Sequence record: PV252060.1
DNA from: Escherichia phage nithesis
Length of the DNA: 64,000 bases
Direction: 5' to 3' (one strand)
Positions within the stretch are counted from its first letter, which is position 1; the number at the start of each line of letters is the position of its first letter. This document shows positions 61,998 through 63,829 of the stretch, piece after piece. The translations under genes were made by a program, and so were the position numbers. A model generated the notes under the pieces. The model saw nothing but the letters and a program-made list of their open reading frames with translations, did not search any database and was not told the origin of the DNA.

Positions 61998-62345
61998 TTA
62001 GTAAGTTTCTTGGGATATAATCCTTACTCTCTTAAAATCTTTATTAGGTCTGCTATCTATAGTAAGTCCAACAAACCCTTCTTCTATCCTTGGTTCAAAG
62101 AACAAGAATGCAGATTCACCAGCAGGTATCTTTATGGATTCCCTTGGATTAAGGATGGTTAACTTAGCTGGGCTATTTAGAATAAGAATGGAACCACGGG
62201 TGCTATCTGCTAACTCACCAGGTAGCATAAGCATATGACAGTCTTGGGGTAGTAACCATTCAATGGCTTTATTAACATTCTCGGAGTAAACGGATACTTC
62301 ATCCTTATACTGATGGAGGTACAGTACTCTATTCATAAGGTACAC
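61998..62345 (-). CDS. early paralog family member 1
   Basis: Shares ILILNSPAKLTILNPRESIKIPAGESAFLFF-type core with the other four. Confidence 0.45.
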   Translation of the reverse strand: MYLMNRVLYLHQYKDEVSVYSENVNKAIEWLLPQDCHMLMLPGELADSTRGSILILNSPAKLTILNPRESIKIPAGESAFLFFEPRIEEGFVGLTIDSRPNKDFKRVRIISQETY

Positions 62346-62656
62346 TCGTCGCTAGATAAATATGAGGTAGAAGGATAGAGGGTAATAAGTCTACCTGTAA
62401 GGGTAGTTACTACCATAGGTTCATTTTCAGATAGTATGTACACACTGGTGTGTTCAGGTATTTCTATAGAGTCGGCTATCTTAATGAATTGGATAGGCTG
62501 CCCCAACATTAAGCAAGTACCTATGAACACCTCTGCTTCTTCACTAGGCTCATATAGGATAGTGGTAATTCCTTCCTTATCCGCCAGGATATGATCCATT
62601 GTATAAGGAGACAAAAAACAAGTAGTAGCAAAGCTAATCAGGCAATATAGGTTCAT
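62333..62656 (-). CDS. early paralog family member 2
   Basis: LMLGQPIQFIKIADSIEIPEHTSVYIL core. Confidence 0.4.
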   Translation of the reverse strand: MNLYCLISFATTCFLSPYTMDHILADKEGITTILYEPSEEAEVFIGTCLMLGQPIQFIKIADSIEIPEHTSVYILSENEPMVVTTLTGRLITLYPSTSYLSSDECTL

Positions 62657-62659
62657 ACT

Positions 62660-62974
62660 TTACTTCCTTACATAGTAGTAACGGGATTCACCATCCTCAT
62701 AGCGACAATCCCATTGGTAATCATCAGACACCATCATGTATGGGATAGGTTCCCCGGAGTTAAAGTTGGTATAGACAGATGGAGGAACAATACATACAAC
62801 CTTACGGTCATTACCTGCTAAGAAGAGTTGACCCCTTACTTCATGGTAGTCCTCTAAAGTAGGAACCAGGATTACTTGCTGGGGGTTGTTGTCCATGACT
62901 TCTTCTAAAGTGAAGTCTCCTGCATACATAGCCCCCCTTCCAGTAAAACTAGGGATGGTCATTATGAATTTCAT
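62660..62974 (-). CDS. early paralog family member 3 (divergent)
   Basis: FLAGNDRKVVCIVPPSVYTNF core. Confidence 0.35.
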   Translation of the reverse strand: MKFIMTIPSFTGRGAMYAGDFTLEEVMDNNPQQVILVPTLEDYHEVRGQLFLAGNDRKVVCIVPPSVYTNFNSGEPIPYMMVSDDYQWDCRYEDGESRYYYVRK

Positions 62975-63338
62975 GATTGGTTCTCCTTCCTTTAGGGATA
63001 GGTCTAAAGTAAATGGAAAGTGTTTTATTAAAGACGTTATGGTCAGCTATCAATTCCCAACCATCTATCTTATAGAAACGTATACCAGGGAAGATCATTT
63101 GAAAGTCGCTGTAAAAGGAAAGATCATACACCTTTGGTTCAGTAAGTATCTTAGTATTGAGTTGCAGGTTGGATAAGAAAAAAGAACCAATAATCTCGTG
63201 TGATTCCTCGCAGTCAGGTAAGAATACTGTTTGCCACGGGGTAATGAACTTACTTACTGTTTCTGGTTCCCCAAGTAGATATGGTTCTTGCTTATGAAGT
63301 ACACCAGTAATATCAATATCAAAAGCGTAGATGCTCAT
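62949..63338 (-). CDS. early paralog family member 4 (divergent)
   Basis: FLSNLQLNTKILTEPKVYDLSFYSDFQMIF core; CAGGAGG ribosome-binding site before ATG at 63338. Confidence 0.4.
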   Translation of the reverse strand: MSIYAFDIDITGVLHKQEPYLLGEPETVSKFITPWQTVFLPDCEESHEIIGSFFLSNLQLNTKILTEPKVYDLSFYSDFQMIFPGIRFYKIDGWELIADHNVFNKTLSIYFRPIPKGRRTNHEIHNDHP

Positions 63339-63364
63339 ATTTGCATACCTCCTGAAAAAGAAAT

Positions 63365-63390
63365 GGGGTAGAGCCTCTCGACTCTACCCC
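63365..63390 (-). promoter_or_regulatory. strong hairpin upstream of paralog 4: candidate vRNAP hairpin promoter or terminator/attenuator
   Basis: ggggtagag-cctctcga-ctctacccc, perfect 9-bp stem; in minus sense followed by tttcttttt and ribosome-binding site. Confidence 0.35.
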
Positions 63391-63538
63391 TTACCGTTTT
63401 CTATCACGGGTCAGTTCATCACCCTAGATACATGTGTATCATTAGCCTACTAGGTAGGAAAGGAGCCGGGCAACCCTGACTGTAGAAGTTATTAACTCTT
63501 TACGAGTACCGCCACTGTCTACTAGGCGGCATGACTAA

Positions 63539-63829
63539 TCACATCGTCACCGTCATCCGAACACTGTCTTTGCTTCGCCTGACGGAGACACTATGCGGTA
63601 ATTTTGTGAAGAACACAAGAGCCGAAGGACGTTTTTCTAAAGAGTAAGTTTCTCTTGGTTCTAAGATTTTAATGCCGGGTCGATTCTCTAAAAGCATCAT
63701 CCCAGCCAATTCATGATAGATATCTTCGTCGTGAGTAATGATAATATCATCTGAAAGAATACCGGCTTTAGTGTGGTCTAGCTCCTTGTATTCATCTTTA
63801 GAGTCGTGGACTCTCATATAGATTCTCAA
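63539..63829 (-). CDS. early paralog family member 5
   Basis: MMLLENRPGIKILEPRETYSLEKRPSALVFF core; start TTG at 63829 with AGGAG, or ATG at 63817. Confidence 0.4.
   Translation of the reverse strand: MRIYMRVHDSKDEYKELDHTKAGILSDDIIITHDEDIYHELAGMMLLENRPGIKILEPRETYSLEKRPSALVFFTKLPHSVSVRRSKDSVRMTVTM

Follow-up and report, generated by a model that had tools for sequence, protein, structure and literature searches.

A variable tandem array of small paralogous genes at the right end of the genome of Escherichia phage nithesis and its N4-like relatives

The 64,000 nucleotides of Escherichia phage nithesis (sequence record PV252060.1) that were analysed in this study, hereafter termed the window, contain five adjacent short open reading frames (ORFs) on the minus strand at positions 61998 to 63829, which we call E, D, C, B and A in the order in which they are read. 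Our results demonstrate that these ORFs and a sixth, decayed copy, F, belong to one protein family, which was found only in proteins that look derived from N4-like phages and whose members comprise about 90–135 amino acids (aa). The array occupies the right end of the linear genome, where a variable cluster of short ORFs is an already known feature of N4-like phages; a prior description of the paralogy of these ORFs was not found in the literature searched. Isolation of N4-like phages for therapy is widespread, and N4 itself is a classic model, whose genes gp70–72 are without assigned role.

Results

A tandem array of diverged paralogues

A preliminary description of the window had delineated the five minus-strand ORFs, all of which were confirmed, and every peptide that it had quoted as their common core is found in the translations. 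E (63539–63829, 96 aa, with a TTG start codon) is the orthologue of N4 gp70, matches the PHROGs group phrog_7213 (E = 9.6e-45) and constitutes the most widely conserved member. D (62949–63338, 129 aa; phrog_9160, E = 4.1e-64) is the orthologue of gp71 of both N4 and G7C, C (62660–62974, 104 aa; phrog_11661) and B (62333–62656, 107 aa; phrog_12099) are the orthologues of G7C gp71.1 and gp71.2, and A (61998–62336; phrog_12606) is found in a subset of Gamaleyavirus. The latter would encode 112 aa from an ATG at 62336, which is the probable start, or 115 aa from a GTG at 62345. Each ORF is preceded by a Shine-Dalgarno sequence, which in case of E is AGGAG. The final 26 nucleotides (nt) of D overlap C, B starts 3 nt past the stop codon of C, and the stop of B and the start of A overlap as ATGA. 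With computed isoelectric points (pI) between 4.1 and 6.9 and in the absence of hydrophobic or membrane segments, the encoded proteins are expected to be soluble.

The relationship between these proteins is evident from several kinds of sequence comparison. In Smith-Waterman alignments, whose scores were tested against 2000 shuffles, significant z values were obtained within the five ORFs for the pairs E–A (6.4), D–C (8.4) and B–A (5.4) and via F for E–F (6.7), C–F (9.7) and B–F (5.2). The remaining pairs, among them E–B, D–B, D–A, C–B and C–A, are individually not significant, which would speak for a resemblance resulting from chance or composition, or for some of the ORFs being non-coding, but the significant links form a connected graph. 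When profile hidden Markov models (HMMs) were built from ten phages with the members of all orthologous groups except the one to be scored, the omitted members reached 26.4 (E), 20.0 (D), 22.9 (C), 15.0 (B), 22.8 (A) and 24.0 bits (F), far above the maxima of 10.9 bits in 1000 shuffles of the targets and of 6.4 bits in 267 fragments of other ORFs of the window. Comparison by hhalign with enlarged alignments yielded probabilities of 94% for E–F, 93% for C–F and for B–A, 92% for E–A, 87% for B–G, 84% for D–C, 79% for E–C and 51% for E–D, and the matches among paralogues are in the same register throughout. A MAFFT alignment of 33 diverse members contains one invariant glycine (Gly 43 in E, corresponding to Gly 51 in D), and the shared motif, h-h-h-P-x-x-(E/D)-(E/D)-x-H-x-h-x-G, reaches upstream of the core noted in the preliminary description.

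The ratio of nonsynonymous to synonymous substitution rates (dN/dS), computed against the orthologues of VTCCBPA_322, Mimir124, G7C, PhAPEC7 and U1G, ranges from 0.08 to 0.23 in E, from 0.17 to 0.28 in D, from 0.21 to 0.35 in C, from 0.13 to 0.27 in B and from 0.12 to 0.16 in A. All five ORFs are thus real coding genes under purifying selection, and orthologues are present in 58–103 phage records. The diversifying selection that had been ascribed to the array is contradicted by these gene-wide values of 0.08 to 0.35 among orthologues; the variation instead lies in gene content. Together with independent structural matches described below, the alignments, HMM scores and selection tests refute chance or missing coding capacity as source of the resemblance and leave this explanation with a vanishingly small probability. 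The initial view of the ORFs as diverged tandem paralogues that belong to an unrecognised family was therefore well founded: pairwise and profile alignments detect similarity beyond chance, in agreement with the conserved register, the invariant glycine and the predicted fold.

Separately, tblastn matches to B begin at residue 32 in Mimir124, Bp4 and PhAPEC7, in which unrelated sequence takes the place of residues 1–31 (62563–62656), and this exchange of an N-terminus of about 31 residues suggests mosaic recombination within the gene.

A sixth, decayed copy

A further member of the family, F (61721–62011, minus strand; phrog_16338, E = 1.4e-43), directly follows A. Its frame encodes a clear family member, which includes the sequence IILVPDEQTFHEVKGLALLLG. 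In an alignment with its intact counterparts from VTCCBPA_322, pSb-1 and EC1-UPM, the start codon of F is changed from ATG to AAG (62011–62009), and a deletion of 32 bp near its 3' end shifts the frame. By its sequence, F is a decaying paralogue and a predicted pseudogene in phage nithesis. The base change that destroys its start also replaces a histidine by glutamine near the C-terminus of A.

Predicted fold

The AlphaFold2 (AF2) model of E (pLDDT 84.9, pTM 0.73) contains predicted strands at residues 2–6, 14–18 and 29–31, a helix at 35–47 that carries the invariant glycine, and further strands at 54–56, 61–66, 72–74, 80–85 and 90–95. In the AF2 model of D, a confident core of strand, helix and two strands (37–41, 44–55, 61–65 and 69–72) is related to the core of E by an offset of +8 residues, exactly as in the sequence alignment. 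The alignments feeding the predictions were less diverse than wanted, because word-indexed protein searches gave mostly close copies from Gamaleyavirus and Kaypoctavirus. A Foldseek search with the E model against BFVD, which contains independently predicted viral structures, retrieved ten matches at E ≤ 1e-3, all of them from N4-like phages. Those to gp70 orthologues have TM values of 0.84–0.89, and those to proteins of apparent paralogue type, assigned by length and source phage, have probabilities of 0.9–1.0 and TM values of 0.40–0.63. The latter include proteins of EC1-UPM (104 aa, apparent C type), KP8 (108 aa, apparent A type), IME11 (113 aa, apparent A type), PhAPEC7 (108 aa, apparent F type) and OLB145 (121 aa, apparent gp71), and weaker matches include three proteins of Pseudomonas phage Zuri. 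The models thus predict a common fold of small soluble alpha/beta proteins, in which a strand is followed by the helix bearing the invariant glycine and by further strands.

Two other identities were considered and rejected. The pattern h-h-h-P-x-x-E...G had prompted comparison with the swapped hairpin of AbrB/MazE, but it corresponds to a strand and a 13-residue helix in the E model and there is no Pfam match. A role as DNA mimics was discarded as just B is strongly acidic (pI 4.1).

Distribution and copy number

Each ORF matches its own PHROG, with E values of about 1e-45 to 1e-64, and at least six groups of unknown function (7213, 9160, 11661, 12099, 12606 and 16338) divide the family in this resource. 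The annotation of G7C names the orthologues of D, C and B gp71 (as similar to N4 gp71), gp71.1 and gp71.2. In tblastn searches, E matches N4 gp70 with 31% identity (E = 6e-8) and is found in 103 phage records, from phages of Escherichia, Shigella, Klebsiella, Achromobacter and Pseudomonas. For D, 67 records were matched, some of them from Klebsiella phages, and for C and B 58 records each, all from Gamaleyavirus; for A-type orthologues, 18 of the 40 matching records reach at least 80% identity. We thus assign N4 gp70, N4 gp71 and the six separate PHROGs to one Schitoviridae family on the basis of the described sequence relationships. A HMMER scan of 1.84 billion representative proteins retrieved 39 clusters at E ≤ 1e-3, which consist of single-domain proteins of 54–137 aa that resemble those of N4-like phages. 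Profile searches with the array proteins against Pfam, NCBIfam, PADLOC and PDB gave no match; with respect to defence-system components this negative result refers to PADLOC, as no search was aimed at catalogued anti-defence families. The sources searched contained nothing on function or expression of N4 gp70 and gp71.

A comparison of copy number across N4-like genomes, as proposed in the preliminary description, was carried out with the family HMM and revealed between two and seven members per genome: N4 contains 2, Inbricusvirus 3, G7C 4, KP8, JWAlpha and Axy11 5 each, the window 5 and the pseudogene, VTCCBPA_322, Mimir124 and U1G 6 each, and PhAPEC7 7. No member was detected by this HMM in the window outside of the array. 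The D-type gene (gp71) of U1G is unannotated in the public record, which is likely an annotation gap, and the third family member of Axy13 and inbricus is annotated either with an implausibly long N-terminus of low complexity or as truncated ORF of 58 aa, both again likely annotation gaps. The arrays of KP8, PhAPEC7 and U1G also carry a protein of about 105 aa with a HExxH motif (HELNHF; phrog_1365, no Pfam match), and that of KP8 contains three paralogues of about 60 aa (KP8_6, KP8_7 and KP8_9); neither is found in the window.

Right-end location of the array

In a megablast search with the region 61500–64000, 58 phage records were matched, nearly all from Gamaleyavirus and with identities of 85–91%, which identifies the window as part of a G7C-like, N4-like coliphage of the Schitoviridae, as judged from this similarity. 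The late genes, including the one encoding a virion RNA polymerase (vRNAP) of 3590 aa (14140–24912), are located on its plus strand, and the early and middle genes follow on the minus strand. The record therefore runs in the opposite sense to the standard N4 map, of which it is the reverse complement, and shows a circular permutation.

The physical ends of the genome were located by comparison with relatives. In IME11, which is 91% identical, read pile-ups have defined termini with a direct repeat of 401 bp at record positions 62722 and 63123 (PMC3896407); the same record contains gp1 at 62657–62980 and the array at 63214–65654, and the termini fall between both. The left-end read of IME11, GTGGCTGGGGCTACACCC, aligns to positions 61658–61641 of the window with one mismatch, and the alignment of the experimentally known left end of N4 starts at 61653. 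The terminal repeat of Mimir124, whose ends agree with the Sanger-verified ends of G7C, aligns to 61257–61660. These matches define a direct terminal repeat of 401 bp at about 61258–61658, which is represented by a single collapsed copy in the permuted record and contains the 5' part of the gp1 homologue (61192–61515, minus strand).

The same arrangement is found in other phages. The N4 homologues gp70–72 are the final genes of the map, located on the plus strand and divergent from gp69/gp68, and this layout of the right end is shared by G7C, KP8, JWAlpha, PhAPEC7 and U1G. In Mimir124, Axy13 and Axy11, a terminal repeat of about 400 bp is annotated directly after the array. The position of the array on the early/middle-sense strand, reaching from the divergent gp69/terminase operon to the right terminal repeat, is thus common to these nine phages and IME11. 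With its termini between the gp1 homologue and the array, the linear genome carries the array at its right end. On the basis of these alignments, we consequently regard it as the known variable group of short ORFs that diverges from the terminase operon. In N4, the right end of the genome is the last to enter the cell (PMC4496689).

Array boundary and gene turnover

Between array and terminal repeat, the window contains a conserved boundary (61659–61745, minus strand), which begins with TCCTATTTAACTGCTTATAAGTAGG and supplies the C-terminus of the last gene. In G7C, PhAPEC7, U1G, Mimir124, IME11 and EC1-UPM, the array terminates in this sequence as well, where it is followed by about 85 conserved bases up to the terminal repeat. 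Two reading frames of this boundary end the terminal gene in different phages, leading either to ...SYLTAYK* or to ...LLFNCL*, the latter being the C-terminus of proteins P0315 and P0329. Besides this role, the element and about 60 nt that follow it may form part of a packaging recognition site. In the four-gene array of G7C, the B-type gene is joined to the boundary exactly at a microhomology, TC(A/C)TATTTA, which the window also contains at the 3' end of B. This junction argues for gene gain or loss by recombination at short repeats, and together with the pseudogene F it shows that genes have been turned over, as opposed to being under gene-wide positive selection. The diversity of the family hence arises from old duplication and from gain and loss of genes.

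Transcription signals

The complete intergenic region between the divergent genes gp69 and gp70 (63830–64000, 171 bp) contains a conserved hairpin (GGGGT-GAGAT-ACCCC, 63939–63953), a conserved block, TTACACTTTAG, at 63906–63916 and the Shine-Dalgarno sequence of E. In an alignment of this spacer with those of N4, KP8 and JWAlpha, the blocks are conserved across two subfamilies, with 80% identity between N4 and the window over 86 bp. The hairpin is located 110 nt from the start codon of E and has a loop of 5 nt (4 nt in N4). Concerning the evolution of this spacer, the hairpin (GGGGT...ACCCC) and the block TTA(C/G)ACTTTAG have been kept from Gamaleyavirus to N4, KP8 and the Achromobacter phage JWAlpha, and the Gamaleyavirus spacer contains an insertion of about 24 nt relative to N4. 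The reverse complement of the block includes TAAAGT, which may serve the late promoter of gp69 as -10 element. A recurring middle-promoter motif was considered for TTA(C/G)ACTTTAG and rejected, as it occurs a single time in the window and degenerate matches are rarer than expected by chance.

Upstream of E or D, on the minus strand of the window, a scan for sigma-70 promoters found no site with at least 9 of 12 matching positions; N4 and KP8 contain the sequence TTTAGA-16-TACAAT at the place equivalent to the upstream region of E. A search for enriched 8-mers in 24 intergenic gaps of the minus strand returned nothing convincing, with GTATGTAA present in three gaps without shared context. Hairpins of the vRNAP type, with stems of at least 5 bp and the N4-like TCC loop, are found on the gene strand only at 61565, 60752 and 55926, and no such structure (stem of 5–7 bp, TCC or TTC loop of 3 nt) precedes E or D. 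The first of the three (ACATGC-TCC-GCATGT, centred on 61565, minus strand) resembles an early promoter of the P1 type, being located inside the terminal repeat upstream of gp1 and matching N4 P1; owing to its location in the repeat, it is found at both genome ends. The others are located upstream of the gp2 homologue (60752, minus strand) and of an ORF of 272 aa at 55067–55885 (55926, minus strand). With stems of 6–7 bp, all three are candidates for the vRNAP early promoters P1–P3.

The spacer between E and D (63339–63538, minus strand) contains a terminator-like hairpin (63365–63390, 11 bp with 7 GC pairs) that is followed by a run of T about 25 nt from the start codon of D. At the equivalent place, a terminator is annotated in PhAPEC7 and JWAlpha and was found in N4. 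The predicted fold of the entire 200-nt spacer as RNA has an energy of -71.6 kcal/mol (z = -4.07 versus shuffles) and comprises more than the terminator hairpin. The spacer has no match in Rfam and could be a structured 3' untranslated region or a small RNA. From the terminator and the tight spacing of D, C, B and A we infer that E would form a separate unit and that the other genes would be reached by read-through.

Some features of the neighbouring early region complete this description. Between 56001 and 60000, the GC content is low (0.37–0.38, compared to about 0.43 elsewhere) and the GC skew strongly negative. An ORF of 112 aa (60766–61104, minus strand) is located between the gp1 and gp2 homologues, where N4 contains a short gap only. 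A hairpin with a run of T (GGGAGGCTC TTCG GAGTCTCC TGTTTT; 61150–61190, minus strand) directly follows the stop codon of gp1 and may be an early terminator.

Discussion

[quoted passage not shown] In the reading that we favour, to which we assign an even chance of being correct as a whole, its genes are functional, belong to a single family restricted to N4-like phages and encode accessory factors that bind host proteins after the early phase of infection. The array would be placed between the promoter region of the divergent late operon, containing gp69 and the terminase genes, and the fixed boundary of about 85 bp beside the right terminal repeat. E would be its own transcription unit, and D, C, B and A would be reached only by read-through of the terminator, leading to graded and translationally coupled expression. 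Transcription might begin once the whole genome is inside the cell, thus in the middle or late phase, and would depend either on N4 RNAPII or on the sigma-70 RNA polymerase of the host. On a more speculative level, E and D might perform a conserved task that the variable C, B, A, F and other members extend to variant targets, so that the composition of the array would tune fitness on different hosts. The proteins, which contain no catalytic motif, might act by binding to components of host physiology or defence, with variable members widening the range of targets, a speculative proposal that we consider somewhat less probable than its opposite. A stronger version appears doubtful. In this version, gp70, gp71 and at least six PHROGs would make up an expandable Schitoviridae cassette family whose copies are inserted and lost through recombination at short junction repeats beside the packaging boundary, and the variable members would be determinants of host range or anti-defence, each neutralising a different host factor after entry of the full genome. 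If true, it would define a late-acting counter-defence locus in a phage that is otherwise largely independent of its host in transcription.

Several observations weigh against the favoured reading. E/gp70 is conserved over two subfamilies and has a dN/dS near 0.1, which would be expected of a core function no less than of an arms-race factor, and gene-wide positive selection was not seen among the orthologues of any of the five genes. A role in the metabolism of DNA ends would agree equally well with the position beside the packaging boundary and the terminase genes. The confidence of the D model is only moderate (pLDDT 68.5). Finally, motif and sigma-70 scans do not assign E to a promoter class, and no literature on transcripts of N4 gp70–72 or of Gamaleyavirus was found.

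The neighbourhood and the strong conservation of gp70 suggest a function in DNA-end metabolism as the main rival, where the family would help to initiate packaging, to generate or duplicate the terminal repeat, to process concatemers or to replicate the ends together with gp69 and terminase, its paralogues being subunits or specificity variants. It is in line with the invariable location of the array between the gp69/terminase promoter region and the boundary with the terminal repeat, with the strong purifying selection on gp70 in both Enquatrovirinae and Rothmandenesvirinae, and with a suggestion of the authors of the LUZ7 study, who link the rightmost ORFans transcribed in mid-infection to replication. 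We nevertheless regard this function as unlikely, given the wide variation of copy number and repertoire among close relatives with near-identical termini and the decay of F in phage nithesis without obvious consequence. Moreover, the proteins are neutral to acidic, whereas DNA binders are usually basic, and searches of Pfam and PDB did not connect them to any known small terminase or end-binding protein.

The preliminary description had instead placed the array at the promoter-proximal end of the early region, as first-transcribed genes that are read by the injected virion RNA polymerase, serve immediate host takeover or anti-defence and are subject to diversifying selection. Such an assignment is understandable in the permuted record, where the array is located directly upstream of gp1, gp2 and the early region on the same strand, and small ORFans in a variable array are a property of many early host-takeover genes. 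The resemblance to the head of the early region is, however, a consequence of the permutation: the physical termini separate the array from gp1, and N4 and its relatives carry it at the right end, divergent from gp69/terminase. According to a review of N4, its vRNAP promoters are restricted to the first-injected left end, and the genome has entered in full only when the middle machinery has been made (PMC4496689). In the window, the three canonical hairpins are likewise at the left end and none with a loop of 3 nt precedes E or D. These features, together with the low dN/dS values, argue against transcription of the array among the first genes, and we consider the early assignment highly improbable.

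An equally improbable proposal describes the array proteins as degenerate mimics without catalytic activity that imitate the second RecA-like domain of SF2/DEAD-box helicases and would bind a partner of a host helicase, such as the RhlB site of RNase E, and thereby remodel RNA decay or another helicase-dependent process. Searches for helicase motifs IV–VI or Helicase_C in the array proteins yielded no Pfam match at E ≤ 10 and no sequence match in PDB. In contrast to the C-terminal RecA-like domain of these enzymes, the array proteins lack helicase motifs and sequence similarity, contain one helix only and comprise about 100 aa. We regard the resemblance as a generic beta-alpha-beta similarity, and the proteins should not be classed with helicases.

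The described relationships have consequences for the study of N4-like phages. Most variable right-end ORFs in at least two subfamilies would fall into one family that shares an invariant glycine and a predicted fold, which would reduce dozens of hypothetical proteins to one experimental problem. The conserved pair of gp70 and gp71 together with the strain-variable members offers a natural series of deletions and swaps for tests of host range. Our analysis also illustrates a trap in annotation, as circularly permuted phage records can pass last-injected genes off as first-transcribed.

[quoted passage not shown] The array shares with them small, lineage-specific and often dispensable genes clustered near a genome end. 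It differs in its location at the end that would be injected last and in the absence of members matching a PADLOC defence family, with no search aimed at anti-defence families. Another parallel concerns the rightmost small ORFans on the Watson strand of LUZ7, which are transcribed in mid-infection and are not described as paralogues in the literature found. Both sets of genes follow the late cluster at the right end, are located on the strand of early/middle sense and vary in number. By analogy, the timing in LUZ7 would be in line with transcription of the array in the middle phase, the likeness being one of position, strand and gene number. The immediate counterparts of the array are gp70 and gp71 of N4 and gp70, gp71, gp71.1 and gp71.2 of G7C, which agree with it in position, strand and the terminator after gp70. 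A-type and F-type copies are absent in both phages, whereas phage nithesis contains an A-type and a decayed F-type gene, and the right-end genes that have been annotated as separate hypothetical proteins in the sources searched are here assigned to one family.

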